Below, piece by piece: positions 27,352-61,329 of a stretch of DNA of 64,000 nt (its first letter is position 1; each line of letters starts with the position of its first letter). Location of the stretch: the NCBI GenBank assembly GCA_964385685.1, contig CAYLQD010000002.1, positions 20,704-84,703 on the forward strand, in the 5' to 3' direction. The position numbers and the translations under genes were made by a program. This stretch comes from an uncultured Planctomycetota bacterium (GTDB taxonomy: Bacteria; Planctomycetota; PUPC01). The notes under the pieces are model-generated. The model searched no databases and had not been told where the DNA came from. It worked only from the letters and a program-made list of their open reading frames with translations.

Positions 27352-27777
27352 TTACTTCTCCGATCGCTTCTCGAAGCGCTTCTTGACCTGCGCCGGCGTG
27401 TGCACGCTCGACGGCACTCGCCGCCCCTCAAGCTCATACGGGTACGGCGTCAACTGCGAATAGAGAGCGTCCCACCGACAATGCCGCCCGGCCAGGAATT
27501 CGAGGTCGCCGCGGTAGCGGCTCGTGCTTCGCCCCGTCCCGGCGCGCCGGTAGAAGGCATAGACCAAGAGCACCTCTTTGTCCGTATTGAACATGTAGAG
27601 AAGACTCTCGCCGGACTGGATCGTCGACGTGACCAGAATCCAGCTGCCCGAAGCGCTTCCGCCGCCGCCTTGGGCCCGCGCGACCGATTGCTCGCTCGAG
27701 AGCCACGAGGCAAGCGCGGCGACCAACGAGACCACAAGAACAATCATGAGCATCCTGAGCAGCCGTTCGATCTTCAT
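27352..27777 (-). CDS. Hypothetical membrane-anchored/secreted protein, tandem paralog A
   Basis: Internal ATG 27777 is preceded by a TAGGAG RBS and a TTGCCT-18-TATAAT promoter. Core 'WILVTSTIQSGESLLYMFNTDKEVLLVYAFYRR' is shared with 28036-28455. Confidence 0.5.
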   Translation of the reverse strand: MKIERLLRMLMIVLVVSLVAALASWLSSEQSVARAQGGGGSASGSWILVTSTIQSGESLLYMFNTDKEVLLVYAFYRRAGTGRSTSRYRGDLEFLAGRHCRWDALYSQLTPYPYELEGRRVPSSVHTPAQVKKRFEKRSEK

Positions 27778-27823
27778 GGCAGGACTCCTAGCTTGCGGGC
27801 CGCGCAGACGCGCCGCCCTGGGG

Positions 27824-27853
27824 ATTATAGCGCACATCACGGAAACGAGGCAA
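27824..27853 (-). promoter_or_regulatory. Promoter-like TTGCCT-18-TATAAT for paralog A
   Basis: Read on the minus strand. Confidence 0.35.
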
Positions 27854-28035: not shown

Positions 28036-28455
28036 CTAGTGTTCCGACACCTTGCCGTAGGCGTCCTTGAGTTCGGCCGGCAAATGGAGGTCCTTCGGCG
28101 GGGCCTCCTTTTCCAGCGGGTAGGGATAGGGCCTCACCCTCGAGTAGAGCGCGTCCCACTTGCAGTGGCGGCCGGCGAGGAACTCGAGATCACCGCGGTA
28201 ACGACTCGGGCCGCGCCCGGTGCCCGGGCGGCGGTAGTAGGCGTAGACGAGCAGCACCTCTTTGTCGGTATTGAACATGTAGAGCAAGCTCTCTCCGTTC
28301 TGGATCGTGGATGTGACGAGTATCCACTGGCGCGCGGCGCCGCCCGTGTCGGCCTGCGCCACGTTCCCTTCGCTCGACCACCACGCAGTGAACACTGCAA
28401 GCACTCCAACGACAAGCATCACCAGCACGATTCTCGTCAGGGTCTCCAGCTTCAT
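28036..28455 (-). CDS. Hypothetical membrane-anchored/secreted protein, tandem paralog B
   Basis: About 65-70% identical to paralog A over the core. AGGAGG RBS 8 nt before the ATG. Confidence 0.5.
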   Translation of the reverse strand: MKLETLTRIVLVMLVVGVLAVFTAWWSSEGNVAQADTGGAARQWILVTSTIQNGESLLYMFNTDKEVLLVYAYYRRPGTGRGPSRYRGDLEFLAGRHCKWDALYSRVRPYPYPLEKEAPPKDLHLPAELKDAYGKVSEH

Positions 28456-47765: not shown

Positions 47766-48488
47766 TCAGGCGTCCGCGCCGGCGCCCGCAAGCAGATCGT
47801 CGAGATCGAGCAGCGCGTCGAGCGTGTCGATCACCGGCACCGAGGGCTCGCCCGCCGGCCAATGCCGTCGGAGCGCGCGATGCTTGAGCCAGACAGGCCG
47901 GATGCCGGCGCCCTGGGCGCCGACAACGTCGATCCGCCAATCATCGCCGACATGAACGGCCTCGGCGGGCAGAAGGCCAAGCCGCTCGAGGCAGAGCCGG
48001 AAAGGGGCCGAATCGGGTTTCGAGGGCACGCCGCCCTCCCCCGCAACGACGACCACATCGAAGAACTCGCGAAGCCGCGGCAAGCGATCGATCCCATGAT
48101 CCTCCGACACGCCCGGCCCCTGGCAGTTCGTGACAAGAGCGAGCTTGAACTGCTCCGCCAGCCGGCCAAGCACGCGGATCGTCTCCGGGAAGGGCCGCGT
48201 CGCGTCGCGGACCTGCCCCCAATACTCCCGCTCCCAGAGCCCGAGCGCCGCGGGGTCGGGCTCGCGCGCGTAACGGCTGTAGACGGCTTCCCACATCTCG
48301 GACCGGGAGAAGTTGGGCGCCCGCTCGTCAAACTGCGACCGGAGGGCGCGGTAGTCGGAGAGGAACGTCTCCCACGGTGCGCCGAGATCTTCGCAGATGC
48401 GGACCTCGGCCTGCTTCTCGGCCGCGCGAAACCCGGCGGACGAGTCGACGAGTGTCTGCGTGAAATCGAACAGAACCGCCTTGGTCAT
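47766..48488 (-). CDS. HAD-superfamily hydrolase (subfamily IA; possibly phosphonoacetaldehyde hydrolase PhnX-like)
   Basis: Motif I 'AVLFDFTQTLVD' (D-x-T, compare PhnX D-x-A-G-T-T), 'LVTN', 'KPDSAPF', 'GDDWRIDVVGAQGAG'. Confidence 0.6.
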   Translation of the reverse strand: MTKAVLFDFTQTLVDSSAGFRAAEKQAEVRICEDLGAPWETFLSDYRALRSQFDERAPNFSRSEMWEAVYSRYAREPDPAALGLWEREYWGQVRDATRPFPETIRVLGRLAEQFKLALVTNCQGPGVSEDHGIDRLPRLREFFDVVVVAGEGGVPSKPDSAPFRLCLERLGLLPAEAVHVGDDWRIDVVGAQGAGIRPVWLKHRALRRHWPAGEPSVPVIDTLDALLDLDDLLAGAGADA

Positions 48489-48503
48489 ACCGTGCGGAGG
48501 CGC

Positions 48504-49892
48504 CTAATCGCGGCCCCACTTCGCCAGATACTCGCCGAACAACTCCTCGTCGCTCGGAACGTGCTCCGGGATGGGGACCGACAGTCGCGTGTAGTTGAGG
48601 AACTGGCGCCAGTTGATGTTGTCGCTCGTCATGTTGCCCGCCCACGTGCCGCAGCCGAGGGTGTCCGTCGTCGGCTGGCCGTTGAACCAGCTTCCGCTGT
48701 TGGCGGCCGCGTGCGGCATGTTGCAGTTGACGCGGCCGACGTTAAGCCGCCGGGCGAGTTCGAGCTGGCGCTCGCGGATCTCGCTGTGGATCGAGGCCGA
48801 ATGCCCCTCGCCGGAGAACGCGAGGATCTTCTCCGTCCGGTCGACCATCTCATCGAAGTCGGTCCATTTCCACACGGTGAGCGTGAGGGATATTTTCTCG
48901 CCGGAGAAACGGTCTTCGGGGCCGATCTTCTCGCCGACGACCATGAGGAACCGCGTGCCCTCGGGGATGTCGATCTGCGCCTGCTCGGCGATGGTGGCGA
49001 CCGGCTTGGCGACGACGTCGCGGTTGAGCGCGTGCCCGTCGGGCCACATGTAGGTCCGCAGCCGCTCGCGTTCGTCGGCGCTGCAGAGGTGCCCGCCGAC
49101 GCCCCTGAGCGCCTCGAGCATCTCGTCGTAGACCGTGTCTTGGATCGCGACCGCGTTTTCCGACGAGCACGACGCGGAGTTGTTCGCCGTCTTCGACTTC
49201 ATGATCTTCTCGGCCGCGGCCCCCAGGTCGGCCGTGTCGTCGACGATCGAAACGACGTTGCCGGCTCCGACGGTGTGGGCCGGCTTGCCCGCCTCGTAGA
49301 CGACCTTGATGAGCGCGGCCCCGCCGGTGGCGACCGCGAAATCACAGACGCGCATCAACTCCTGCGTCTTCTCCTTGCTCGTCTCCTTGATGCACTGAAG
49401 CAGGTCCTCGGGCGCTCCGATCTTCTTCAGCGCCTTCCGGCCGTGCTCGACCGCGAGATACGAGCTACCCTGCGTCCGCGGGTGCGGCGAGACGATCATC
49501 GCGTTCCGCGTCTTCAGGATGTTGACGCCGAGCGCGCAGACGGTCGACTCGGGGTTCGTGCACGGGACGACGTTCGCGATGACGCCGATGGGCTTGGCGA
49601 ACTTCGTGATGCCCTTCTCCGGGACTTCCTCGACGATCCCGCACGTCTTCGCGCCCTTCATGTCGCGCAGGCTGCCGCGCGTCTTCGCCTGAATCTTCGC
49701 AACCTTGTCCTCGTAGACGCCGATGCCGGACTCGTCGACGGCGAGCCGCGCGAGCGCCTCCGCCGTCTCGGGCTTCTGCCACTCCCAGCCGACGGCCTGG
49801 ACCATCTCGTCGACCTTGTCCTGCGGCCAGAACTCGACCTCCTTGAACGCCTTCCGCGCGCGTTCGTACATCTCCTGGATGTTGTCAGTCAT
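48504..49892 (-). CDS. CoA-acylating aldehyde dehydrogenase (EutE/PduP/AdhE-N family, acetaldehyde dehydrogenase (acetylating))
   Basis: 'VPCTNPEST', 'KTRNAMIVSPHPR', 'ATGG', 'GKPAHTVGAGN', 'SCSSENA', 'LGCGTWAGN'. GGAGAAG RBS before ATG 49892. Confidence 0.75.
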   Translation of the reverse strand: MTDNIQEMYERARKAFKEVEFWPQDKVDEMVQAVGWEWQKPETAEALARLAVDESGIGVYEDKVAKIQAKTRGSLRDMKGAKTCGIVEEVPEKGITKFAKPIGVIANVVPCTNPESTVCALGVNILKTRNAMIVSPHPRTQGSSYLAVEHGRKALKKIGAPEDLLQCIKETSKEKTQELMRVCDFAVATGGAALIKVVYEAGKPAHTVGAGNVVSIVDDTADLGAAAEKIMKSKTANNSASCSSENAVAIQDTVYDEMLEALRGVGGHLCSADERERLRTYMWPDGHALNRDVVAKPVATIAEQAQIDIPEGTRFLMVVGEKIGPEDRFSGEKISLTLTVWKWTDFDEMVDRTEKILAFSGEGHSASIHSEIRERQLELARRLNVGRVNCNMPHAAANSGSWFNGQPTTDTLGCGTWAGNMTSDNINWRQFLNYTRLSVPIPEHVPSDEELFGEYLAKWGRD

Positions 49893-49894
49893 CG

Positions 49895-50920
49895 TCACTT
49901 CTTCTCCCGTTTCGTGCCTTCGTACTTCGCCTTCGGGGGCTTGACCTCTTCGACGATCGCCCAGCCGGTGCCGACCATCTTCTGGCGCTCGTCGAAGGCC
50001 TTCTTCCACTCCTCCGGCGTGTGGGCCTGGCCGGGGACGGCGTGCTGGTCCCGCTCGGCGAGCGGGGGCACCGGCCGGTCTTCGGGCCCGTCATACCATT
50101 CCTTCGGCGTGAGCGCCCGGCCCTGCCGGACAAAACCTTCGCGCTCGATCTCCTCGCAATAGTGGGCGCCGGCCGCGAACGCGCGGGAGATCGCGAGGAT
50201 CGCCCATGTCGCCTCGCCCGAGAACCCGAGATCGAGCATCACGGCGCCGGACGCGCCGAGCAGATCGATATCGACCGGCTCGGGACTCGCCGCCCCCGCG
50301 GCCTTGACGACCTCCTTCATGAAGGCGACGTGCTCGCCCGCCACGCCCAGCTTCTCGGCTCGCGCCATCATCCGCTTCGCGGCCGGATCCTTGAGCATCA
50401 GGTCCGAAACGCCGAGCGCCTCGTCGTCCTTCTTGTGCTCGACGACGAGCTTCGCGGCCTCCTCGAGCGACATCTCGCCCTCGTCGACCTTGTGCAGGTA
50501 CTCGTCCATGATCGTGCCGAACGCGCAGTAGGCGCCGAAGGCGTGGCCGAATGCGAGGATCGACGCGCCCGCTCCCTGCGTGAGGAGCGTCTTCGACTGC
50601 GCGACGAGCCGCGAGATCGCGGCCGGAGCCGACAGCCCGTCCTCCATGCCGAGGATCATCACGTAGTTGAGCATCTGATTCTCTTCTTCCGTGGGGATCC
50701 GCGCCTGGAAGTCGACGAAGATCACGTCCGCGAGCCCGTACCCCGCCTCGGCCAGTTCGGTCGTGTCGTAGCCGCGGGCCACGATCCGGTGCACGTTCTT
50801 GTAGGCCACTTCGGACAGCCAGCGGAACGGCTCCCGCCCGTCGTTGGTGTCACGCTCGACCGTTCCCCACTCGCGGTCGTGGTAGTCGTAGCGGAGCCGC
50901 GGATCGTCTAGATTACCCAT
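49895..50920 (-). CDS. Citrate synthase-family protein (short, citryl-CoA lyase-like), paralog 2
   Basis: 'ARGYDTTELAEAGYGLADVIFVDFQARIPT' citrate-synthase N-motif. AAGGAG RBS before ATG 50920. Confidence 0.5.
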   Translation of the reverse strand: MGNLDDPRLRYDYHDREWGTVERDTNDGREPFRWLSEVAYKNVHRIVARGYDTTELAEAGYGLADVIFVDFQARIPTEEENQMLNYVMILGMEDGLSAPAAISRLVAQSKTLLTQGAGASILAFGHAFGAYCAFGTIMDEYLHKVDEGEMSLEEAAKLVVEHKKDDEALGVSDLMLKDPAAKRMMARAEKLGVAGEHVAFMKEVVKAAGAASPEPVDIDLLGASGAVMLDLGFSGEATWAILAISRAFAAGAHYCEEIEREGFVRQGRALTPKEWYDGPEDRPVPPLAERDQHAVPGQAHTPEEWKKAFDERQKMVGTGWAIVEEVKPPKAKYEGTKREKK

Positions 50921-51804
50921 TGGAGGTATTCTCCTTCTTCCTTCTGTTTCCTGGCGTGCTCCTGACGCGCCTCGGCCGGAGGCACCTCGCGCTGATCCGG
51001 CCCGACGTACTTGATCATCGAGAGGTCGAGCATCTGGATCATCGGCTCGGCCTTCGACGCGGCCCACGCCCGCCCCTTCTTCATGTGGAACAGCGCGTGT
51101 GCGGCGCAACTGAACCCGCGGCAGACGCAGCCGATGCACCACGCGGCGTTCGGCGAAAAACCGAGGTCGGCGAGCGCCGTGTTGCCGGCGCCGATCATGT
51201 TGACGGCGACGTAGGAACGGCCCTCGCTCTCACGGCGGCCGTGGAAGTACTTCTCGACGGCCCGCTGGAACTGCAGGTACACGCCGCCGAGTCCCAGTTC
51301 CTCCTGCTTGAGGTGCGTCGGCTCCGCACGTGGATCGCCGTCGGTGTGCTGCGGCTGCCCCATGCCCATCACGGGCTGCTTCGCGTCGAGGTGCTCGTCG
51401 ACAAGAATCTTGCCCATCTCGTCGAGCGTCTTGCCCTCGACACGGGCGCGCTCGATGTGCTGATTCATCATGTACCCGTGCGCGGCGCCCGGGCCGTGGG
51501 CCCCGCCGAACGTCATGACCGACGCAGCGATGGCCGCCGGCAGGTTCGGCCGGCCGCTGATGACGGCGACGGCCGACGCGGCCGAGGGTGACATCGAGTG
51601 CTCCAGAAACTCACCCATCTCGTACTCGAGCATCTTGTGCTCGGGCGTCGTCGGAATCCGGCCCTGAAAGAGCACGAAGAGCGCGTCGCAGAACGAATAT
51701 CCCTCCTCGGCCAGCTCGCTCAGATCGTAGCCGCGGACGACGGTCTTGTCCTCCGTCTTGTACGAGATACTCGTCTTCCTCTTGATTGGCGGCTCTCTAT
51801 TCAC
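50908..51804 (-). CDS. Citrate synthase-family protein (short, citryl-CoA lyase-like), paralog 1
   Basis: 'VRGYDLSELAEEGYSFCDALFVLFQGRIPT', 'FGGAHGPGAAHG' (compare GPLHGGA), 'GMGQPQHTDGDPRA' (compare GFGHRVYK.DPRA). Confidence 0.55.
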   Translation of the reverse strand: MNREPPIKRKTSISYKTEDKTVVRGYDLSELAEEGYSFCDALFVLFQGRIPTTPEHKMLEYEMGEFLEHSMSPSAASAVAVISGRPNLPAAIAASVMTFGGAHGPGAAHGYMMNQHIERARVEGKTLDEMGKILVDEHLDAKQPVMGMGQPQHTDGDPRAEPTHLKQEELGLGGVYLQFQRAVEKYFHGRRESEGRSYVAVNMIGAGNTALADLGFSPNAAWCIGCVCRGFSCAAHALFHMKKGRAWAASKAEPMIQMLDLSMIKYVGPDQREVPPAEARQEHARKQKEEGEYLQWVI

Positions 51805-51849
51805 ACTTGCACCTCCGTTTCAGGCATCCACTGGGGCGGTCGAGACAGT

Positions 51850-52100
51850 CCATTCCTTGCCCCGAAGGGGCAAAAGCGGCAGCTTGGCTGCCGTCGCAGT
51901 TTGCCCAAGGCAAACTGCCAGGCGAGCGACGCTCGCCCATCAGCCCAGGGCGAAGCCCTGGGTAACAGAACACGTACCGATCAAGCCCTGAAGGGGCGTT
52001 AGAGGATTCCTATCGCCCCTTCAGGGCTTCCGAGCCTGCCTGACCCTTTCTCCCAGGGCTTCGCCCTGGGCTGATGAATTCGAGCCTTTCAGGCTCAGCA
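51850..52100. repeat. Hairpin-cluster repeat element (copy A): at least 8 consecutive GC-rich hairpins
   Basis: ttgccccGAAggggcaa, gcggcagcTTGgctgccg, gtttgccCAAggcaaac, gcgagcgACGctcgc, cccagggcGAAgccctggg, and a 16-bp IR aagccctgaaggggcg/cgccccttcagggctt. 51875-51945 is about 93% identical to the reverse complement of 62230-62300. Confidence 0.65.
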
Positions 52101-52144
52101 CGCCACTTTTTCAACGTGTCTGAGCGAGCGTGTAACCCAGCTCT

Positions 52145-53527
52145 TCACATCTTCACCGACAGGGCCGGGAAGCCCGAGTTGGACAGATGCTTCAGCGTCT
52201 TCGCGACGAAATCCACATGCTCGTCCGTCGGACGCCCGGACGCGAGGTCGAAACACTCGGTGTAGCTCTTGCCGATCGACGCGGTCGCGAGCCCATCTTC
52301 GTATTTCGGGAGCAGCGCGTTGGCGAGGTCGCTCGCCTCGGCCCGCGTCATGCCCGCGCTCGCGAGCGCCATGTCCGTCGTGACGCGCATCTCCATCGGC
52401 GTCACGTAGTCCGCCACGGTCGCCTTCGCCGGATGCGGCGTCTGAATCGACACGCCCGACGCGATCATCGCCGGAATGAACGCGGCGCTCTCGTAGTAGA
52501 ACGACTCCGTCATCGGGCCGCCGGCGTTGTAGGCGAGAGTGAGCGTCGGCATCGTCGTGTTTCGCGAGATCGCCTGCGAACTGGCGGCCGTCGCCCAGAT
52601 CACGTCGCGTGTGGTTGAGCAACTGGTGTTGACGTGCACCGGGAGCGAGAGGTAGTAGTTGCACTGATAGACGAGCATCCCGAAGAAGACGTAGGCCGTG
52701 TTGAGGATGGCGGTGCCTTCGGGGCCGCCGGCGTATCCGCCCAGCATCGGGGCGCTCGCCAGCACGACGTTGTATTCCGAACTCAGGCCCCAGACCGCCT
52801 TGGCCATCATCTCGCGGTTGGTCTTGAACTCGGCCAGTGAGCCGATGATGATGCAGTCGCTCGGCCGGAGCACAAACTGTGCGGCCGCGGCGGCAATGGT
52901 CGCCGTTGCGCTGCCGGCGGTCGCGATGCCGTTGATGATCGGCAGGCCAGGCCGGCCGGCGTCGCGGCACGCCGCGCGGGCAATCTTGAGCGACCGAATG
53001 GCTCCGAGAATCTCCGTCGGTTGCCCCGTGACAATCGCCCGCCCGTCGATCCTGTCGAGCGCGTTCACACTCATCGAATCGGCCGCCCGGATCAAGGCAT
53101 TCCCTCGGACGATCTTGTACGCGATCTCCTCGCTCGACGCGACGATGCCGGAGCCGACGTGGCACCACGGCCGCGCGCTGCTGTCGGGCTTACGCGAGCG
53201 GAAGATGCGGGCCTCCTTGCCCTCGCCGAAACGGCAGTCGCCGTTGTACGTCGCGACGGCTTCGAGCACCTCCTCGCGGGTGAAGCGGATGACGCTCTGT
53301 GTGTCCTGGAAGTACACACCGCACTCGACGAAGAAATCGACGGCCGCGTCGAAGACCTTGTCGGCGAGCGCGTCGTCCGACGGGACGGGCGTGTCGGGGT
53401 CGTAGCGGATGTCGTACTTCCCGACGAGCCGCTTCAGGGTCGCGTAGACGTTACCGAGGTCGAACGTTTCGACCGGCAGCTCCGGGCCCTTCTGCGCCCG
53501 GTCGCATACCTCAAGAAGACTGATCAT
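52145..53527 (-). CDS. MtmB-family (monomethylamine methyltransferase-like) protein, no in-frame UAG, paralog 1
   Basis: 'FVECGVYFQDTQSVIRFTREEVLEAV' (compare MtmB LVECGVYCTDTERVCKFTEEEIWDAI), 'GRPGLPI', 'PMLGGYAGG', 'IGKSYTECFDL'. 460 aa, uninterrupted. Confidence 0.7.
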   Translation of the reverse strand: MISLLEVCDRAQKGPELPVETFDLGNVYATLKRLVGKYDIRYDPDTPVPSDDALADKVFDAAVDFFVECGVYFQDTQSVIRFTREEVLEAVATYNGDCRFGEGKEARIFRSRKPDSSARPWCHVGSGIVASSEEIAYKIVRGNALIRAADSMSVNALDRIDGRAIVTGQPTEILGAIRSLKIARAACRDAGRPGLPIINGIATAGSATATIAAAAAQFVLRPSDCIIIGSLAEFKTNREMMAKAVWGLSSEYNVVLASAPMLGGYAGGPEGTAILNTAYVFFGMLVYQCNYYLSLPVHVNTSCSTTRDVIWATAASSQAISRNTTMPTLTLAYNAGGPMTESFYYESAAFIPAMIASGVSIQTPHPAKATVADYVTPMEMRVTTDMALASAGMTRAEASDLANALLPKYEDGLATASIGKSYTECFDLASGRPTDEHVDFVAKTLKHLSNSGFPALSVKM

Positions 53528-53536
53528 TGCGGCCCC

Positions 53537-54913
53537 TCACTGGTGCTTCAGTGCGAAACCCATCGAGCGGAGTTCTCCCATTGCCTCGCCGTAGAGGTCA
53601 ACGTATTCCTGGCACGGCCGCCCGGTGACGACGTCGTGGCAGTCATGGTACTTCTTCCCGATGGGGGCGTCGTCGATCGTGTCCTCGTACATCGTCAGGA
53701 GCTTCTTCACGATCCCGTTGGCGTCCTCGCGTTTCATCCCGACCGTCGCTTCGGTGATCTCGACCGAACCGCGCATTTCCATCGGGGTGATGTAGTCGTT
53801 GAGGACGGCCTTTGCCGGGTGCGTGGTCTGGACGGACAGCCCCGACGGTATCGCGGTCGCGATGTAGGCGGCGCTCTCATAGAAGAACTGCTTGGTCATC
53901 GGCCCCGCAGAGATGTAGCCCAGCGACCAAACGAGTTCCTTCGTGTTGCGGCTGATGGCCTGCGAACTCACGGCCGTGCACCAGAGGACGTCGCGCATCG
54001 TGGAGCAGCCCCGACTGATGTGCACGGGGAATGTCAGATGATAGTCGCAGTTGAGCAGCACAAGCCCGACCAGCCGGTACGCGACGTTCACCACGGCCGT
54101 GCCCGCAGGGCCGCCGGCATAGCCACCGACGAGCGGGCCCGACTCGTTGCCGATGTTGGCGCCCCAGCTCTGGAGATACGTCGCTTTGTTGAGCGTGCCC
54201 ATGTCGAACTTCATCTCGGCCATCGCACCGACGAGCCAGCCGTCGGATGGGCGAAGCCCGAACTGCGGACCACTGGCCGCAATCGCCGCCATCGACGTTC
54301 CCGCGGTCGAGATGAGGTTGCCGATGGCCAATCCCGGCCGGCCGGCGTGTTGAAGCGCATCACGGGCCACCTCGATTCCGCGGATCGCACCCATGATCTC
54401 CGTCGGCATGCCGGACGTGACCATGTAGCCGTGGACGGTCTCCAGCGCGGGCACGCTGATGGAGTTCGCCTGCCTGATGCCGGCATAGTCTCGAACCAGG
54501 TTGAAGGCAATCCGTTCTTCCGTGTTGACGATGCCGCTGCCAACGTGGTACCACGGCCGCGTGTCGCTGTCGGGCAAGCGGGGCGTCCACTCGAAGCGAT
54601 CTTTCCCTTCCCCCATGATGCAGCGGCCGCGAGCGTTCGCGACCGCGTGGAGAATCTCTTCGCGCGTGAACTTGATGATCCTGTGGGTATCGGTGCAGTA
54701 GACGCCGACGGCGGCAAGAAAGTCGACGGCCGCCTGATACGTGCGGTCGGCGAGGTCGTCGTCGGCCGGGACCGGCGTCTCGGGGTCGTACACGATGCCG
54801 TATTTCTCGCGCAGGTTTCGCGCGTTCGCGTAGACGACATCGAGGTCGAACTCATCCGACGTCATGGCCGGGCCGTCCTGCGCCCGCCGGCAGATTTCGG
54901 GCATTCCGATCAT
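53537..54913 (-). CDS. MtmB-family methyltransferase-like protein, paralog 2
   Basis: 'AVGVYCTDTHRIIKFTREEILHAV', 'GRPGLAI', 'PLVGGYAGG', 'IGKKYHDCHDV'. 458 aa, uninterrupted. Confidence 0.7.
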   Translation of the reverse strand: MIGMPEICRRAQDGPAMTSDEFDLDVVYANARNLREKYGIVYDPETPVPADDDLADRTYQAAVDFLAAVGVYCTDTHRIIKFTREEILHAVANARGRCIMGEGKDRFEWTPRLPDSDTRPWYHVGSGIVNTEERIAFNLVRDYAGIRQANSISVPALETVHGYMVTSGMPTEIMGAIRGIEVARDALQHAGRPGLAIGNLISTAGTSMAAIAASGPQFGLRPSDGWLVGAMAEMKFDMGTLNKATYLQSWGANIGNESGPLVGGYAGGPAGTAVVNVAYRLVGLVLLNCDYHLTFPVHISRGCSTMRDVLWCTAVSSQAISRNTKELVWSLGYISAGPMTKQFFYESAAYIATAIPSGLSVQTTHPAKAVLNDYITPMEMRGSVEITEATVGMKREDANGIVKKLLTMYEDTIDDAPIGKKYHDCHDVVTGRPCQEYVDLYGEAMGELRSMGFALKHQ

Positions 54914-54934
54914 GCTGAGCGTCTCCAGACAGAG

Positions 54935-56065
54935 TTACTTGAGCGTCACGTCCATCTCATCGATCACGTCCCGGATGGCGGCGAGGAGGTCCTTGACGTC
55001 CGGCTCGAAGATCCGCCCGATGTTGCCGATTCGGAAGCAGTCGGCGCTGCTGACCTTCCCGGGATAGATGACGTAGTCGCGCTCGTTAAGCCCCTCGTAG
55101 AACTTCTCGAACGTGAAGTTCGGGTCCTTGGGGAAGCGGAACGAGGTGATGATGACGCCCTGGTCTTCGGGCGCGAGGTACTCCTCGAACCCCATCGCAC
55201 GCATGCCGGCGACGAGGGTCTCGTAGTTTGCCTTGTAGCGCGCGTGGCGCGCGGCGACGCCCCCCTCGGCCTCAAGCTCCGCGAGCGCCTGGCGGAACGC
55301 GACGAGCGAGTGCGTCGGTGGCGTGAACCGGAATTGCCCGTTCTTCTCGAACCCTTCGTACTGCGCCAGCAGGTCGAAGCTCAAGCTCCGTGCGTAGCCC
55401 TTCGTCTCCCGAAGCGAGCTGATCTTCGCCAGCACGAACGAGAAGCCGGGCACGCTCTCGATGCACTTGTTCGCCGACGAGACGAGATAGTCGATCCGGC
55501 AGGCGGGCAGATTGACGGGCACGGCCCCGAAGCTGCTCATCGCGTCGACGAAGAACTTCGCCCCGGCGGCGTTGACGACCGCGCCGATCTCCTCGAGCGG
55601 ATTCATGATGCCCGTCGTCGTCTCGCAGTGCGTGAGCGAGACGGTCGTGATGGCCGGGTCGGCCTCGAGCGCCGCCTCGACCGCGGCCGGGTCGGGCGTC
55701 GTGTTCTCTGCGAACTCGAGCCGGGCGACGTCGACCTTGAGCACCTCGGCCATCGTCGCGATCCGCTTGCCGTAGGCGCCGTTGATGATAACGAGCAGCT
55801 TGCCGCCGGGCGGAACGGTCGAGCCGACGACGGCCTCGAGCCCGAACGTGCCGCTGCCCTGCATGAGAACTGCGGTGTATTCGTCGGTGCCGGCCTCGCC
55901 CAGTTCGACGAGCCCGTCGCGGATTTCGCGGATGATGCGGATGAACTCGTAGTCGCGCGAGCCGAGGTCCCGCAGCATGGCTTGTTTGACGGCTCGGCTG
56001 GTGGTGAGCGGGCCGGGCGTGAAGAGGAGCTTGTCCTTGGCTCCGGGGATCCTGGCGGCTGTCAT
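54935..56065 (-). CDS. phnW: 2-aminoethylphosphonate:pyruvate aminotransferase
   Basis: 'LLFTPGPLTTSRAVKQAML', 'SSANKCIESVPGFSFV', 'GGVAARHARY', 'VIYPGKVSSADCFRIGNIG' are near-identical to enterobacterial PhnW blocks. GGAG RBS before ATG 56065. Confidence 0.85.
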   Translation of the reverse strand: MTAARIPGAKDKLLFTPGPLTTSRAVKQAMLRDLGSRDYEFIRIIREIRDGLVELGEAGTDEYTAVLMQGSGTFGLEAVVGSTVPPGGKLLVIINGAYGKRIATMAEVLKVDVARLEFAENTTPDPAAVEAALEADPAITTVSLTHCETTTGIMNPLEEIGAVVNAAGAKFFVDAMSSFGAVPVNLPACRIDYLVSSANKCIESVPGFSFVLAKISSLRETKGYARSLSFDLLAQYEGFEKNGQFRFTPPTHSLVAFRQALAELEAEGGVAARHARYKANYETLVAGMRAMGFEEYLAPEDQGVIITSFRFPKDPNFTFEKFYEGLNERDYVIYPGKVSSADCFRIGNIGRIFEPDVKDLLAAIRDVIDEMDVTLK

Positions 56066-56360
56066 TCGCGCGTCTCCAAGGCCGCTGCTGGCCCTGATTG
56101 AAGGGCACAGCTTACATAGTCGGTCTTGGCGGCGCAACAGAATTCCGCCGCGCACGGGCGATTTGCGGAAGTCTGGCGGGGGCGGGCGTTGATCTAGCGG
56201 AAATTGTCACGTGGGCGGCCGAGAAGCATGCCGCGCGCGTTGTTGACGCGGACCTCTCCCGTGGTGTGGACGTTCGGTCGGCGCCTTGGGCGCTTGCATT
56301 AGGTGCGCCGACGATGTACGCTGGGGCCGACACGCCAACTTTGCAGAGGGAGGAGACACG

Positions 56361-56792
56361 ATGAGATGCCCCCGCGACGGCACGGCTCTGGCGAAGGTCG
56401 AGCTCTTCGGCCTCGAACTCGACAAGTGCCACAAGTGCGACGGCCTCTGGTTCGACCGCGGTGAACTCGACAAGATCCGCGACGCGAACGTGCGGGACGT
56501 CGAGGAGGTGCTCGAGGACAAGTACGGGGACCCCGAGTTCGAGGAGGGAACCGTCGACGGCTACATGCAGTGCCCCCGCTGCGACGGCCGGCTGCGGCGG
56601 CAGAACTACACGTACGATGACCCCGTCGAGATCGATTGCTGCCTGAAGTGCTACGGAGTCTGGATCGACAACGAGGAACTGAACGCCATCCTCTCGGCCA
56701 AAGCCGAACTCGACGAAGACGACGAGCAGGTGCGCACAGGCATGCTCAAGCGGTTCCTGGGCAAGATCTCCGGCCGCAAGCCGGGGGCCTGA
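56361..56792 (+). CDS. Zinc-ribbon protein with duplicated 'CPxC...C.C.G.WFD..EL' modules (zf-TFIIB-like)
   Basis: GGGAGGAG RBS then ATG 56361. 'CPRDG..CHKCDGLWFDRGEL' and 'CPRCDG..CLKCYGVWIDNEEL'. Confidence 0.5.
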   Translation: MRCPRDGTALAKVELFGLELDKCHKCDGLWFDRGELDKIRDANVRDVEEVLEDKYGDPEFEEGTVDGYMQCPRCDGRLRRQNYTYDDPVEIDCCLKCYGVWIDNEELNAILSAKAELDEDDEQVRTGMLKRFLGKISGRKPGA

Positions 56793-56890
56793 CGATGTTC
56801 CGCAAATTCCGGGCCCGCTGATGCGTCTAACCCATCGACGCCGCTTGGTGAAGGCGCACGCCGTCGCTCCTTGCCGTGTCATTGCCCACT

Positions 56891-56918
56891 TTGCGCGATG
56901 GGTTTCGCGCTGTATAAT
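56891..56918 (+). promoter_or_regulatory. Promoter-like TTGCGC-16-TATAAT upstream of the pseudokinase gene
   Basis: Read directly. Confidence 0.3.
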
Positions 56919-57009
56919 GGGCCTGTTCGGAATCAGTCGCCCGCGAGGAAGGGGACGCGGGGGTTGTGACCACGGTCGGCTGGGGCTGACGAATCTTGGG
57001 GGGACTGAC

Positions 57010-60000
57010 ATGTCCACAGGACCAGTTGCGGCGACGCCGTCCGACGGCGGCCCGACCACGGTCGCCGGCTATGAGATCATCTCCAAGATCGGCGAGGACG
57101 CCGTCGGGACCGTCTTCAAGGCGCGGCAGCTCTCAACGGACCGCCTCGTCGCGCTGAGAGTCGTCAACGCGAAGATGGCGGCCGACAAGCCGTTTATGGA
57201 CAGCTTCCTGCGCGACGCCCGGGTCGCGGCCGGGCTCAAGCATCCGAACATCATCGAGGTGTTCGACGCGGGGACGGCCGAAGGCCAAGCGTACCTCGCG
57301 ATGGAGCTCGTTGCCGGGCGGGACCTCAAGAAGCTTCTCGCCACGACCGGCGCATTGGAGCAGCAGCGGGCGCTCGAGATCTCCCGCGACATCGCCCAGG
57401 CGCTCGACTGCATCCACCAGGCGGGCGTGGTCCATCGCAACGTCCGGCCCGAGAACATCTTCGTCGGAAGCGACGGCGCCGCGCGGCTCACGGGTCTGGG
57501 CGCCGCCCACCGGCCCAATGTCGGTGTCCTGGGCCAGCCGGGTTCCGGCGCCGCGCGCGAAGCCGCCGACTATGTGTCGCCGGAGGAGGCGCGGGGCGGC
57601 GAGGGCATCGACGCTCGCGCCGACATCTACTCCGTCGGCGCCACTTTGTACCACATGTTGACAGGCGACCCGCCCTTCACGGGCAAGGCGGCCGCTGACG
57701 TGCTGTCCAAGCACGCGACGACCCCCGCGCCCAATCCCTGCGCGGCCGCGCCCGGCGTCTCGGCGCACGCGGCTGCCCTCATTCACAGGACGATGGCGAA
57801 GGATCCCGCGAACCGCTACGGGAGCGCCCACGAGCTGCTGGCCGACCTGAAGCTGTTGCTCGGATGGGCGGCCGAGCCGGCCGCTCCGCGATCGAGTGCG
57901 CCCGACACCCGCGCGGACCTCGGCCTGAGGGACAAAGAGCCGCCTCGCAAATCGAGTGCGCCCGACATCCGCGCGGACCTCGGCCTGACGGACGAAGAGC
58001 CGCCTCGCAAACGGCGCGGCCTGGTCGTCGGCGTCCTCGGGCTCGTCCTGCTCGCGGCGGCCGTGGGGCTCGGAGTCATGTTCTTCCCCGAATCGACACC
58101 GGAACAGAGCCCCGAGGAACAGGAGTTTGCAGCCGTCCGGAAGTGGGTCGCGGACAATCCGGGCAAATACCACGCCGCCCAGGAGAAGTACCGCCGCCTT
58201 CAGAGCACCGTCACCGATCCCGACCGCAAACGCCGAATCAAGGAGACCCTGCTCGAACTCGAGGTCGAGCGCGGCCGGGCCGCGGACGCATTCTTCGCCG
58301 AACTCGAGTCGACGGCAAACAAGCTGGCGGAGCGCCGCGACTATGGCAAGGCCGTCGGTCTCTATCGGAATCTTCCGCCGCAGTTCAAGGACGGCCTCCT
58401 TCCGCGGGCCAGCGAGGCGATCGCAGCGCTCGAGGCCGCATCCAAATCGGCCCTGGCGATGCACATCAAGCGCGCCCGCCTGCTGCTCGAAGAGGAAGAC
58501 CCGATCGCGGGCCTCGAAGAGCTTGGCCGCGCCGACGACCTGATCCGCGGCGAGCCGCCGCGGGAGGTGGACGAACTCCGGGCCAACCTCGAGCGGGCCA
58601 TGGTGTGGCGGGCGCTGATCGCCAAGGAGCGCCTGGAGAAGGTGCTGGACGCCGTGGACGCGCTCGTTGCCGAGGGGAAGCTGGCCGACGCGGCCGGCAA
58701 GGCCCTGGCCGTTGCGAAGGACGCGGAGTCGGCTTACGCGCCGGCCACCGCGAAGAGCATCGCGGGAATCGGGGCCGCGCTGCGGCAGGCCGCGTCGGAC
58801 TCGAAGAAGCAGGTCGAAGCTCTCACGCCCGACGGCCATATGGCCGCCGCCATTCTCGCGCTCGCGGCGGGCCGGCCTGCCGAGATGGGGACGGCGATCA
58901 CCCGTGCCGACGCCCACGAGTTTCGCGTCCGCTACCTCGACAAGCTCGACGTTCTGAAGAAGCAGATCGCGCGGCGCGAGGCCGAAGAACGCCGGCGGCA
59001 GCTTGTTCAACTCACGGCGTTTCGGGCGACCCTGCCCGGCGAGTTGAAGAAGCGCAACTACAAGCCCCTGCTTGCCAGGTTGGATCAGATCATCGCCGAC
59101 CCCGATCTGTCGGCGATTCGCGAACACGCCGAGGCCGACCGGCGGATCCTCGCGCGGCTCGCGGCGACGCTCGACCGCATCCGGCTGAACGTCCGCACCG
59201 AGGCGGGCAAGGCGAAGAAGACCCCGACACGCCGCCGAGGCATCCCGGCGACGATCACGAAGTATGATCCCGCGACCGACACGGTGACGTTCAGCGCCGG
59301 CGCGCCGGAGGCGATCGCGTCGATGCGGGCCGTCGACCTGGCGAGCTTGCTCGGCCTCGACCCGGGCCCGGCCGAGCAGCACCACGAGAGCGTCGCGCTT
59401 CTCCTCATCGCGTCCGGCGAGCCGAAGGCGGCCGAATCCCACGCCGCGAAGGTCGCACAGCGCACCAACCTCGACCGCCTCAACACGATGCTGGCCCCGC
59501 CCGGACGCGCGGATGACGAGATCGACGTCGCCGCCGCAGTCGAGGACGACACGACCGACGAGGCGGCCTCGACCGAGAAGGTCGTGAAGAAGGTGCTGGG
59601 CGAGGACTGGAAGCCGGCCGAGGAGCCAGAGCAGTTCAAGGGCTCGCTCATCCCCGGCTACGACGACGCATTCCTGAAGCAGGGGAGGTGGGCGGAGGGG
59701 CGGGCGTACTACACGGAGCAGTTGACCGGGGTCCTCTCAGCCAAGAAGCCCGACCTGCTCGCCGCTCAGCGGTTGCTGTACGCCCAGGACGTGTGCCAGC
59801 TCTTTCCCGCGGTCGCGGGCGGGGCGCCGTCGCCCGAGGACCGCCCCTTCGCACAGTGGCTCCTGGCGCATCCGAGCCTCGTAAGGAAGCTCGTCGCGGC
59901 CGTTCGGCCCGGCGACAATCCCGCGGGGATCTTCCGCATGCTGTACCTGATCAAGACCAAGGCCCCGGTGAAGAAGGTGACGCATGAGAATCTGATGGTG

Positions 60001-61329
60001 GCCTTCGCGATCGTCTATGACGACAAGGTGAAGAACCTCGACGTCAAGGGCGACGCCGGAAAGGCCGTGAGCCATTTCCGGTATTGCGTGAGGAACGCCG
60101 AGCGGTTTCCGGGCGATCCCCGGACGATCCCCGTCGTGCTGCTCAAGTACATGGTGAACAACGTGGTGTCATCGGAAGAGCGGAAGTGGGCCACGTCGCG
60201 CCACGGCAGAGGCACCAGCCCGACCTTGCTCTACTCGGGCATCAAGTATGACATGAAGGCATTCAAGAAGGGGGCGAGCGAGAGCCGGAACTGGCAGCTC
60301 CGTGAGAAGGCAGGATACACGCTCAAGAGCATCAAGAATTACGGCGGCATATGCGTCGATCAGGCGTACTACACCGTCGGCGTGTCCCGGAGTTGGGGGA
60401 TTCCGGCGACGGTCTTCAGCGGGCGAGAGGTCGAGAAGGGCATCGGACACGCGTGGGCCAGCACGGTCAAGCGGCGCGGCTCGCGGTGGACGTGGATCGA
60501 CGCCGGCCGGTACGGGGGCCGCAGGGGCTACGTCACCGGCACGACCGTCAACCCTCAGACCGGGCACCGCGTGTCGGACCGCGACTGCTGGCTGGAGGCG
60601 CAGGCGGCCGGGCTCTCGGAGGACCGCCGCCAACGCTCACGCCTTTTCCTTCAGGCCGCCCTGCTGATGGAGGGGCAGAAGAACGACGCCCAGGCGATCA
60701 AGTACCTCCGGCTCGCCGTCGCGCTCAACCCCTACTCGGCCGACGCGTGGAAGACCGTGGCCCGCTTCTGTGCGGAACGAAAGCTCAAGCCCGCCGCCGG
60801 CGCCGCTCTCTACCGGATGATGCTCGTCCGATTCAAGAACCATCCCGTCCTCACGAAGCAGGTCCTCGATCAGGTGCGCTCGCTCGCGCCCAAGTCCGAC
60901 GCGAAGCGACATCTGATGCTCTTCGAGATCACCTGGGACCAATACCGGCGGCGGCACCCGGATGTCGCTGCCGTTGTGATGGCCGAGAAGGCCGATTACC
61001 TGATGACGCTCGGGAAGCCCGGGATGGCGCTCGAGGCGTACCGCGACGTCGTGATGAGGTACCGGAAGAACGGCCCGGTCGTCGAGATGCTTCTGCCTCG
61101 CGCGGAAGAGGCCTACCGGTCCCGGAAGAAGGTCAAGAGATACATCGACCTGGTCGAGCGCGTGATGGGCGCGTACAGCAGACTCCGAAACTCGTCGATG
61201 CGCAACATGGCCTACCAGAGAACGACCTACTACAAGGTCGCGACGCACCTGCGGGATTTGTATGGGGAGGTCGGAAATGACAAGAAACGCCGCCGTTACG
61301 AGGAGTTGACCGAGCCCATCCACAAATGA
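57010..61329 (+). CDS. Ser/Thr protein kinase-like (predicted pseudokinase) - TM - helical/TPR-like - transglutaminase-like fusion protein (1440 aa)
   Basis: Kinase fold 'YEIISKIGEDAVGTVFKA', 'LVALRV' (VAIK K->R), 'HRNVRPENI' (HRD D->N), 'GLG' in place of DFG, 'SPE'. TM 'GLVVGVLGLVLLAAAVGLGVMFF'. C-terminus 'GICVDQAYYTVGVSRSWGIPA...GHAWAS' is a transglutaminase-like Cys-His core. Confidence 0.7.
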   Translation: MSTGPVAATPSDGGPTTVAGYEIISKIGEDAVGTVFKARQLSTDRLVALRVVNAKMAADKPFMDSFLRDARVAAGLKHPNIIEVFDAGTAEGQAYLAMELVAGRDLKKLLATTGALEQQRALEISRDIAQALDCIHQAGVVHRNVRPENIFVGSDGAARLTGLGAAHRPNVGVLGQPGSGAAREAADYVSPEEARGGEGIDARADIYSVGATLYHMLTGDPPFTGKAAADVLSKHATTPAPNPCAAAPGVSAHAAALIHRTMAKDPANRYGSAHELLADLKLLLGWAAEPAAPRSSAPDTRADLGLRDKEPPRKSSAPDIRADLGLTDEEPPRKRRGLVVGVLGLVLLAAAVGLGVMFFPESTPEQSPEEQEFAAVRKWVADNPGKYHAAQEKYRRLQSTVTDPDRKRRIKETLLELEVERGRAADAFFAELESTANKLAERRDYGKAVGLYRNLPPQFKDGLLPRASEAIAALEAASKSALAMHIKRARLLLEEEDPIAGLEELGRADDLIRGEPPREVDELRANLERAMVWRALIAKERLEKVLDAVDALVAEGKLADAAGKALAVAKDAESAYAPATAKSIAGIGAALRQAASDSKKQVEALTPDGHMAAAILALAAGRPAEMGTAITRADAHEFRVRYLDKLDVLKKQIARREAEERRRQLVQLTAFRATLPGELKKRNYKPLLARLDQIIADPDLSAIREHAEADRRILARLAATLDRIRLNVRTEAGKAKKTPTRRRGIPATITKYDPATDTVTFSAGAPEAIASMRAVDLASLLGLDPGPAEQHHESVALLLIASGEPKAAESHAAKVAQRTNLDRLNTMLAPPGRADDEIDVAAAVEDDTTDEAASTEKVVKKVLGEDWKPAEEPEQFKGSLIPGYDDAFLKQGRWAEGRAYYTEQLTGVLSAKKPDLLAAQRLLYAQDVCQLFPAVAGGAPSPEDRPFAQWLLAHPSLVRKLVAAVRPGDNPAGIFRMLYLIKTKAPVKKVTHENLMVAFAIVYDDKVKNLDVKGDAGKAVSHFRYCVRNAERFPGDPRTIPVVLLKYMVNNVVSSEERKWATSRHGRGTSPTLLYSGIKYDMKAFKKGASESRNWQLREKAGYTLKSIKNYGGICVDQAYYTVGVSRSWGIPATVFSGREVEKGIGHAWASTVKRRGSRWTWIDAGRYGGRRGYVTGTTVNPQTGHRVSDRDCWLEAQAAGLSEDRRQRSRLFLQAALLMEGQKNDAQAIKYLRLAVALNPYSADAWKTVARFCAERKLKPAAGAALYRMMLVRFKNHPVLTKQVLDQVRSLAPKSDAKRHLMLFEITWDQYRRRHPDVAAVVMAEKADYLMTLGKPGMALEAYRDVVMRYRKNGPVVEMLLPRAEEAYRSRKKVKRYIDLVERVMGAYSRLRNSSMRNMAYQRTTYYKVATHLRDLYGEVGNDKKRRRYEELTEPIHK
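57891..58010 (+). repeat. Near-perfect 60-bp tandem duplication inside the pseudokinase gene (encodes SSAPD[TI]RADLGL[RT]D[KE]EPPRK x2)
   Basis: Copy 1 is 57891-57950 and copy 2 is 57951-58010, with 4 mismatches. Confidence 0.8.

Follow-up and report, generated by a model that had tools for sequence, protein, structure and literature searches.

A 64,000-nucleotide (nt) stretch of DNA from an uncultured Planctomycetota bacterium (contig CAYLQD010000002.1; the whole stretch is referred to here as the window) encodes two adjacent homologs of the monomethylamine methyltransferase MtmB that lack a codon for pyrrolysine (Pyl). We refer to the 458-amino-acid (aa) open reading frame (ORF) as MtmA and to the 460-aa ORF as MtmB2. 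Both genes lie in the middle of a minus-strand operon (47766-56065), in which the gene order is PhnW, MtmA, MtmB2, CCL1, CCL2, SauS-like and HAD (Table 1). The original prediction described two uninterrupted ORFs of these lengths without an in-frame UAG, and their coordinates and strand confirm this description. Within the operon, MtmA and MtmB2 are 9 nt apart, the PhnW stop codon precedes the MtmA start by 21 nt, and the start of CCL2 overlaps the stop of CCL1 by 13 nt. The assignment of PhnW is supported by the NCBIfam equivalogs NF010006 (487.5 bits, cut-off 296) and TIGR02326 (472.9 bits, cut-off 400.8). The gap between MtmB2 and CCL1 is wider here than in relatives, where it measures 43-263 nt, and within it Rfam gave no match, while an uninformative scan for promoters and terminators yielded no convincing candidate.

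Table 1. Features of the minus-strand operon that contains MtmA and MtmB2
Feature	Position	Strand	Description
PhnW, 2-aminoethylphosphonate:pyruvate transaminase	54935..56065	-	376 aa; first sub-operon gene
MtmA	53537..54913	-	458 aa; ATG start; non-Pyl MtmB-family TIM barrel (Pfam, PDB phmmer, structural model, synteny)
MtmB2	52145..53527	-	460 aa; ATG start; MtmA paralog (Pfam match)
Non-coding gap	51805..52144	-	340 nt; parts phnW-mtmA-mtmB2 from ccl1-ccl2-sauS-like-HAD
CCL1, citryl-CoA-lyase/citrate-synthase-like	50908..51804	-	298 aa; Pfam Citrate_synt, E 8e-18
CCL2, second citrate-synthase-like protein, more degenerate	49895..50920	-	341 aa; Pfam, E 1.2e-6
SauS-like CoA-acylating aldehyde dehydrogenase	48504..49892	-	462 aa; NCBIfam AcylSulfactDhSauS, 518 bits
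HAD-family hydrolase	47766..48488	-	240 aa; Pfam HAD; last gene of conserved block

MtmA and MtmB2 are full-length MtmB-family proteins. Both align with nearly the whole of the Pfam family PF05369 (MtmB), from profile position 3 to 449 of 450, with scores of 315.8 bits for MtmA (E 6.4e-94) and 276.1 bits for MtmB2 (E 6.9e-82) against a cut-off of 25. The two proteins are 50% identical to each other, and neither is claimed by any model in an NCBIfam search. A phmmer search of the PDB aligned MtmA residues 9-453 with Methanosarcina barkeri MtmB1 (1L2Q/1NTH, E 1.9e-60). Structure prediction and structural comparison were carried out for MtmA, and the AlphaFold model, which was built on 98 homologs, has a predicted local distance difference test score of 96.5 and a predicted template-modelling score of 0.94. 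In Foldseek, this model superimposes on 1L2Q/1NTH with a template-modelling (TM) score of 0.94-0.95 and a root-mean-square deviation of 1.6 A (E 1e-43, 29% identity), and the next-best matches are MttB-family structures with TM scores of about 0.5. The end-to-end PF05369 matches and, for MtmA, the TM score of 0.95 to 1NTH uphold the predicted MtmB-family assignment over membership of a different TIM-barrel family. The core motif that had been ascribed to both proteins holds in part, as MtmB2 carries it (ECGVYFQDT...IRFTREEV) but MtmA reads AVGVYCTDT...IKFTREEI.

To place the pair within the family, we used a library-wide HMMER search that returned 987 clusters at 50% identity (E ≤ 1e-3). In neighbor-joining trees, which were quickly built and in which deep nodes are not robust, MtmA and MtmB2 form sister clades that derive from a lineage-specific duplication, within a subfamily far from Pyl-containing MtmB. 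Alignment to M. barkeri MtmB, which had been suggested as a check on the original prediction, places Gly198 of MtmA and Ile198 of MtmB2 in the Pyl202 column. The glycine is found in 106 of the 115 MtmA-clade members (Ala in 8/115) and the isoleucine in 65 of the 68 MtmB2-clade members, while Asn199, an insertion directly after this column, is invariant across both clades. The proteins share the fold and a full-length alignment with M. barkeri MtmB, including GGYAGG, R192 (R196 in M. barkeri), D224 (D226), E233 (E235), K235 (K237) and Y333 (Y335). MtmA additionally retains E257 (E259) and H292 (H294), where MtmB2 has A257 and Y292. In contrast to the M. barkeri enzyme, the pair has Gly or Ile for Pyl202 together with the inserted Asn, neutral residues for E205 and E229, and Arg for E324, and it belongs to a distant clade in a bacterial host, where it has no adjacent MtmC and sits in an aminoethylphosphonate operon. 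The only subfamily-specific residues are H123, S153, N199 and H365, several of which lie at or just past the C-terminal ends of predicted barrel strands in the AlphaFold model.

These comparisons bear directly on the existing database annotation. The source records read 'monomethylamine:corrinoid methyltransferase', and both the fold and the family of that annotation hold. On the other hand, the E205, E229 and E324 substitutions, the tree position far from Pyl-MtmB and the embedding of the genes in phosphonate catabolism all speak against it, as does the lack of MtmC and pyl genes in the window. We therefore regard it as extremely improbable that these are authentic monomethylamine:corrinoid methyltransferases, and a Pyl-type enzyme (EC 2.1.1.248) is disfavoured because there is no Pyl codon and because neither an adjacent MtmC nor a pyl gene was found in the 64 kb of the window and 10 kb of extra sequence.

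The genomic context of the family was compared across 99 loci overall, which came from a genome scan (13), a metagenome scan (79) and contig look-ups and were annotated by tblastn with window proteins and NCBIfam-validated reference proteins. A locus was assigned to the MtmA clade when its focal protein was at least 60% identical to MtmA (n=44), and was considered well-flanked when at least 3 kb was available on both sides, which was the case for 15 MtmA-clade and 19 sister-clade loci. The named relatives, at 62-74% identity, are Planctomycetota metagenome-assembled genomes (MAGs) from Pirellulales, Sedimentisphaerales, Phycisphaerae/Phycisphaerales and Planctomycetaceae. PhnW is a neighbour in 31 of the 44 MtmA-clade loci and in 13 of the 15 that are well-flanked, so the view of MtmA and MtmB2 as an orphan pair is not supported, given that PhnW also adjoins them in the window. 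Two further phosphonate enzymes recur in this clade, namely PbfA, the ammonia-lyase acting on (R)-1-hydroxy-2-aminoethylphosphonate, which lies between PhnW and MtmA in 12/44 loci (700-722 bits, cut-off 525), and PhnX, which is present in 10/44 (328-334 bits, cut-off 220). In addition, MtmB2 is a neighbour in 19/44 loci, the CCL/SauS-like module in 12/44, an MttB homolog in 3/44 and a pterin-binding methyltransferase in 2/44, and a corrinoid protein was found in a single locus (1/44; 1/15 well-flanked). A more distant homolog, 56% identical, is divergent from a PhnCDE-type phosphonate ATP-binding cassette transporter; PhnW and a HAD protein of PhnX size lie at a distance of 8 kb.

Four architectures recur among these relatives. 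The complete PhnW-MtmA-MtmB2-CCL1-CCL2-SauS-like-HAD order of the window is also found in L025, L027 and L032, and a version with PbfA inserted is found in L007, L008 and L037. Otherwise complete operons of this kind occur without MtmB2 in L014, L031, L035 and L006, which indicates that MtmA is the constant member and MtmB2 an accessory. In the fourth architecture (L005, L020, L029 and L039), PhnX and an MMSDH-like acylating dehydrogenase replace the CCL module. The HAD gene is syntenic in L007, L027, L032, L035 and L037.

Two MtmA-clade loci place the pair beside methyl-transfer genes. In L038 (SDBV01001321.1, 1-15961), a single strand carries MtmB2 (63% identity), PhnX, MtmA (72%), PhnW, MttB, a major facilitator superfamily (MFS) protein and a 223-aa ORF, followed by a corrinoid protein, a third MtmB-like protein (45%) and a Pterin_bind methyltransferase. 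This locus joins the pair to a complete system of first-step methyltransferase (MT1), corrinoid protein and second-step methyltransferase (MT2), with four MT1-type genes for one corrinoid protein, near phosphonatase genes. In L029, an MtmB-like gene (43%) and a pterin methyltransferase lie upstream of PhnW, MtmA, MtmB2 and PhnX. A Planctomycetaceae MAG (L013) combines MtmA, PhnW and MttB.

In the sister clades, which include loci named Anaerolineae or Chloroflexota by their source, 39 of 55 loci have a corrinoid protein next to the MtmB-like gene, as do 17 of the 19 that are well-flanked. Two Anaerolineae contigs unite phosphonate and methyl-transfer genes. The first (L021) encodes PhnW, PbfA, a second class-III aminotransferase, a NUDIX protein and a GntR regulator, and then PHO4, PhoU, MttB, two MtmB-like proteins, an MFS protein and a corrinoid protein. 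The second (L022) encodes GntR, PhnW, a PhnA-like protein, PhnX, MttB, an MtmB-like protein, an HpnZ-like alcohol dehydrogenase and another MtmB-like protein, followed by a corrinoid protein (TIGR02370, 218 bits, cut-off 215), a PHP-domain protein, a uroporphyrinogen decarboxylase (URO-D) and a HAD protein. The PHP-domain gene directly follows the corrinoid gene in two sister-clade loci, L022 (12315-13208) and L084. Similarly, L065 carries PhnW, PhnX, two MtmB-like proteins and a corrinoid protein, and in L053 two pairs of MtmB-like genes lie with a corrinoid protein, two class-III aminotransferases, a PhnX-like hydrolase and a CCL1-CCL2-SauS-like module sharing 65-81% identity with that of the window. 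Recurrence in phnW/phnX-type clusters across taxa is thus a property of the MtmA clade and extends to the Anaerolineae loci L021, L022 and L065.

Our preferred interpretation, in which we place about as much belief as doubt, is that MtmA, together with MtmB2, is an N-methyl-2-aminoethylphosphonate (N-methyl-AEP):corrinoid methyltransferase that feeds AEP to PhnW and uses a corrinoid protein encoded elsewhere. All functional statements made here draw on sequence, predicted structure and gene context, and it is on this basis that we infer which substrate is used, in which direction the reaction runs, that a corrinoid protein acts in trans and how the two paralogs share the work. In the proposed mechanism, MtmA and MtmB2 would be MT1 components recruited to aminophosphonate catabolism in anaerobic Planctomycetota; the rubrerythrin and phosphate butyryltransferase encoded in the window suggest that the host is an anaerobe. 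The pathway would begin with uptake of N-methyl-AEP, and perhaps of N,N-dimethyl-AEP or 1-hydroxy forms, which PhnW cannot use. MtmA would then move the N-methyl group onto the Co(I) of the corrinoid protein, with MtmB2 contributing a second specificity or serving as a partner subunit, and a pterin-binding or MtaA-type methyltransferase would hand the methyl group to tetrahydrofolate (THF). The co-transcribed PhnW would convert AEP to phosphonoacetaldehyde, which would be processed by the downstream block of SauS-like, CCL1/CCL2 and HAD proteins. It is tempting to speculate, based on the order of conservation, that MtmA handles the monomethyl compound and MtmB2 another methylation state, unless it is a partner subunit. 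L021 and L022 each have three MT1 genes for one corrinoid protein, a ratio that would fit a sequential loss of all three methyl groups from trimethyl-AEP. The use of MttB, MtbB and MtmB for trimethylamine is a parallel to such a scheme of one MT1 per methyl group.

Published work on methylated aminophosphonates and on Pyl-free methyltransferases is consistent with this interpretation. N-methyl-AEP is common, can near AEP in abundance and is not a substrate of PhnW; its known routes of degradation are the flavin adenine dinucleotide (FAD) oxidases PbfB/C/D, and the oxygenases TmpA/TmpB are given as the sole known degradation pathway for trimethyl-AEP (PMC10590968). Together with MtqC, the Pyl-free MtmB homolog MtqB removes methyl groups from tetramethylammonium and choline (PMC13044021), and the MttB-family protein MthB demethylates phosphocholine, a close phosphate-ester analogue of trimethyl-AEP (PMC12155760). 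Our literature search found no paper tying MtmB-family proteins to phosphonates or Planctomycetes. The earlier statement that substrates of non-Pyl MtmB-family proteins are essentially uncharacterised is broadly correct, with MtqB as one exception (PMC13044021, 2026). MtmA and MtmB2, whose own specificity is uncharacterised, are good candidates for a new substrate class, in keeping with the suggestion that this pair may have a new activity.

The substrate could also lie outside the phosphonates. MtmA and MtmB2 might be corrinoid-dependent MT1 proteins for N-methyltaurine, N-methylated ethanolamine phosphate, choline derivatives or other anionic methylamines, and their link to PhnW might then come from common regulation or from a downstream amine or aldehyde pathway used by both. 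Consistent with this possibility, only 5 of the 55 sister-clade loci, most of which bear a corrinoid protein, have a recognisable PhnW, other class-III aminotransferases being found instead; the aldehyde dehydrogenase of the operon is nearest to the sulfoacetaldehyde enzyme SauS (518 bits); and L023 and L024 have non-phosphonate neighbours. Within the MtmA clade, however, PhnW, PbfA and PhnX exceed curated cut-offs, PhnW is adjacent in 13/15 well-flanked loci, and the PhnCDE-type transporter also points to phosphonates, so we judge a non-phosphonate substrate to be rather unlikely. The reaction might alternatively run in the biosynthetic direction, with methyl-corrinoid methylating AEP that PhnW makes from phosphonoacetaldehyde, to give N-methylated head groups for lipids or glycans. 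Corrinoid methyl transfer is reversible in principle, and the window PhnW also matches a biosynthetic/catabolic PhnW-AepZ equivalog (463 bits). Nevertheless, no phosphoenolpyruvate mutase or phosphonopyruvate decarboxylase was seen in the window or the related loci, and the recurrent partners (PbfA, PhnX, PhnCDE-type uptake and GntR/UTRA regulators) are catabolic. To our knowledge, known phosphonate N-methylations use S-adenosylmethionine (SAM), which also counts against biosynthesis, and we consider this direction very unlikely.

Several observations weigh against our interpretation of the pair as N-methyl-AEP:corrinoid methyltransferases. N-methyl-AEP and N,N-dimethyl-AEP are secondary and tertiary amines, and their demethylation without Pyl would be unusual. 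Quaternary amines are the main substrates of every non-Pyl MttB- or MtmB-family protein characterised so far, and MtqB has only a small activity on monomethylamine (PMC13044021). In some loci (for example L036), the pair occurs without any phosphonate gene within 10 kb. The residues R221, R322 and R395, which stand in place of T, E and I of M. barkeri MtmB, were considered as a phosphonate-binding charge reversal, and this idea was dropped since 66-78 of 110 representatives from other non-Pyl clades have these arginines too; being common to most non-Pyl homologs, they are uninformative on phosphonate binding. The scarcity of adjacent corrinoid proteins in well-flanked MtmA-clade loci relative to sister-clade loci (1/15 versus 17/19) is a systematic contrast, and no corrinoid protein, second-step methyltransferase or activase was found across the 64 kb of the window and the 10 kb lying past its start.

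This last result draws on several searches. Querying the window by tblastn with four corrinoid proteins, two MttB proteins and one URO-D protein from related loci gave no match, and six-frame window ORFs gave none at E ≤ 1 to a 42-protein corrinoid hidden Markov model (HMM), to an MttB HMM or in a phmmer search that used a pterin-binding methyltransferase as query. Pfam searches, partly precomputed, of essentially all of the ~52 window genes found no B12-binding, URO-D, Pterin_bind, MTTB or pyl-type domain, and an Rfam scan of the window found neither a cobalamin riboswitch nor any other match. The sequence past the window start, read from a 95.9-kb metagenome contig (Ga0118727_1000526, JGI 3300009128; L104), contains only signalling and type II secretion/pilus genes over 10 kb and no methyl-transfer partner. 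The predicted absence of a corrinoid protein, an MtbA-type methyltransferase and pyl genes from the 64 kb is accordingly borne out by these searches taken together.

Such an absence raises the possibility that MtmA and MtmB2 are independent of a dedicated corrinoid protein and catalyse a different reaction on an AEP-related phosphonate, such as methyl transfer straight to another acceptor, a reaction that uses free cobamide, or a lyase or hydrolase TIM-barrel reaction that supplies PhnW. In the closest outgroup loci (L086 and L087), a corrinoid protein is still found alongside, which indicates that adjacency was lost exactly at the base of the MtmA clade, and this loss coincides with the gene duplication and the tight fusion to phnW. 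Together with the 1/15 versus 17/19 contrast and the 64 kb plus 10 kb devoid of partner genes, these observations favour independence. By contrast, the core and pocket-candidate residues are common to MtmA and the corrinoid-linked clades (R192, N199, D224, E233, K235, GGYxGG, R322, N323 and E346), E257 and H292 are retained in MtmA as in M. barkeri MtmB, the pair adjoins parts of a corrinoid/MtmB-like/pterin-methyltransferase module in L038 and L029, and no gene for another cofactor or partner recurs consistently beside it. There is also a precedent for several MT1 proteins sharing one corrinoid protein, as MtcB, MtpB and MtyB share MtqC in Eubacterium limosum. Because the sister clades are corrinoid-linked, parts of such a module adjoin the pair in L038 and L029 and the core residues are shared, a corrinoid protein acting in trans is the simpler reading. 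Corrinoid independence, which the original prediction had raised, is thus disfavoured; we retain it as an unlikely explanation that still deserves some weight, because the loss of adjacency is systematic.

Assuming that the pair supplies AEP to PhnW from a corrinoid-dependent demethylation, the downstream genes of the operon would act on the resulting phosphonoacetaldehyde. The SauS-like protein scores below the NCBIfam cut-off of 600 for its best model, followed by the AdhE N-terminal half (376 bits) and the EutE type (297 bits), and is a candidate acylating phosphonoacetaldehyde (or acetaldehyde) dehydrogenase. Alignment to 6HXP was used to judge the catalytic residues of the two CCL proteins. 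CCL1 keeps one of three catalytic residues, the His of AHG, and in 14/14 orthologs the GYGH His is replaced by Gln, the next Arg by Pro and the NVDG Asp by Val or Ile. CCL2 keeps none of five reference catalytic or binding residues in 13/13 orthologs, and every NCBIfam citryl-CoA lyase model scores both proteins below its cut-off. With their catalytic residues lost, true citryl-CoA lyases or citrate synthases were rejected; CCL1 and CCL2 resemble a heterodimer in which no more than one subunit would be active and which is not a citrate or citryl-CoA enzyme. The HAD protein has no PhnX or PhnX-like match in NCBIfam and was rejected as a PhnX. Its motif I reads D-F/Y-x-Q-T, in which the Asp+2 position is variable among orthologs (T/G/D/C) rather than a conserved Asp, and PhnX likewise lacks that Asp.

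The distribution of this module relative to PhnX is suggestive. In the MtmA clade, the CCL/SauS-like module is present in 12 loci, PhnX in 10 and both in none, and across all 99 loci the corresponding counts are 14, 14 and 0. In addition, the CCL/SauS-like/HAD block holds the position that PhnX and the MMSDH-like dehydrogenase occupy in sister operons. Because module and PhnX never co-occur, this pattern suggests that the module replaces PhnX and the acylating dehydrogenase. The module may therefore cleave the C-P bond independently of PhnX, perhaps by way of phosphonoacetyl-CoA. This compound has no established place as a catabolic intermediate and appeared in our literature search only as an unrealised prediction in a biosynthesis preprint. 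Taken to its furthest extent, the whole cluster (47766-56065) could turn methylated aminophosphonates into acetyl-CoA and phosphate with no need for O2 or PhnX, a joint reading that we regard as rather unlikely. It would combine two undescribed activities, namely demethylation of secondary and tertiary aminophosphonates by Pyl-free MtmB-type proteins, possibly without a dedicated corrinoid protein, and a new type of C-P cleavage, in which the SauS-like enzyme would oxidise phosphonoacetaldehyde to phosphonoacetyl-CoA, after which the CCL heterodimer, with or without the HAD protein, would cleave the C-P bond by means of its retained enolate-stabilising His.

Other features were observed around these genes. 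No GntR/PhnR-type regulator was found at the phnW operon of the window, unlike the Anaerolineae clusters. Divergent from phnW, the plus strand at 56286-61329 encodes two proteins, one with two copies of a TFIIB-type zinc ribbon and the other a Ser/Thr kinase whose C-terminal extension is very long (a 1,502-aa ORF, called as 1,439 aa). Elsewhere in the window, two neighbouring small minus-strand ORFs of 162 and 139 aa (27352-27840 and 28036-28455) are clearly paralogous, belong to no Pfam family and share a long block (...ILVTSTIQ.GESLLYMFNTDKEVLLVYA.YRR.GTGR...RYRGDLEFLAGRHC.WDALYS...). In related loci (L015/L016, L020 and L036), large secreted-type proteins recur near MtmB-like genes, with domain sets comprising LamG, a pyrroloquinoline quinone (PQQ) beta-propeller and a SAM-methyltransferase; Sulfatase/Phosphodiest and TPR; or a phospholipase C-type phosphoesterase. 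These proteins may liberate AEP head groups from phosphonoglycans or phosphonolipids.

Comparison with characterised systems helps to define what would be new here. MtqB of Methanococcoides methylutens Q3c is the sole non-Pyl MtmB-family member with demonstrated function and, as in our proposal, works with a corrinoid protein on methylated amines other than monomethylamine (PMC13044021). Unlike MtmA and MtmB2, it is archaeal, is encoded beside MtqC and acts on quaternary amines without an anionic group, and its branch is reported to lie near the Pyl-MtmBs, with conserved Met/Cys and aromatic pocket residues (PMC13044021). By that description, MtmA and MtmB2 would be set apart from MtqB as a separate, phosphonate-linked bacterial subfamily far from M. 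barkeri MtmB. The phosphocholine:THF system MthB/MthC/MthA of E. limosum, and MtgB, follow the same MT1/corrinoid/MT2 logic as that proposed here (PMC12155760, PMC13080624), and homologs of their MttB-type MT1 accompany MtmB-like genes in L021, L022, L038 and L013. In those systems, however, the MT1 belongs to MttB/COG5598, a single demethylation takes place and there is no coupling to C-P cleavage. The PbfA-D proteins resemble the pair in being recurrent accessories of phnW clusters, which funnel N-methyl-AEP and (R)-1-hydroxy-AEP into PhnW/PhnX (PMC10590968, PMC8154272). PbfB/C/D differ in being FAD oxidoreductases that release methylamine and phosphonoacetaldehyde, with PbfD requiring O2, whereas the MtmB-like pair would demethylate non-oxidatively, leave AEP and save the methyl group as methyl-THF.

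As of 2026, function is known for one, MtqB, of the ~1,000 MtmB-family clusters (50% identity) outside the Pyl enzymes, and our analysis now provides a concrete substrate hypothesis for a large bacterial subfamily found in sediment Planctomycetota and Anaerolineae. A separate lead, towards what may be a new C-P cleavage chemistry, comes from the downstream module, which is never found alongside PhnX. If secondary or tertiary amines are demethylated without Pyl, this would bear on why methylamine methyltransferases need Pyl. More broadly, if our interpretation is true, N-demethylation of methylated aminophosphonates without oxygen would be an undescribed route, and since N-methyl-AEP and trimethyl-AEP are frequent natural phosphonates, an anaerobic route of this kind would fill a gap in anoxic sediments. 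It would also join corrinoid-dependent methylotrophy to the phosphonate part of the phosphorus cycle, two fields that have so far been separate.

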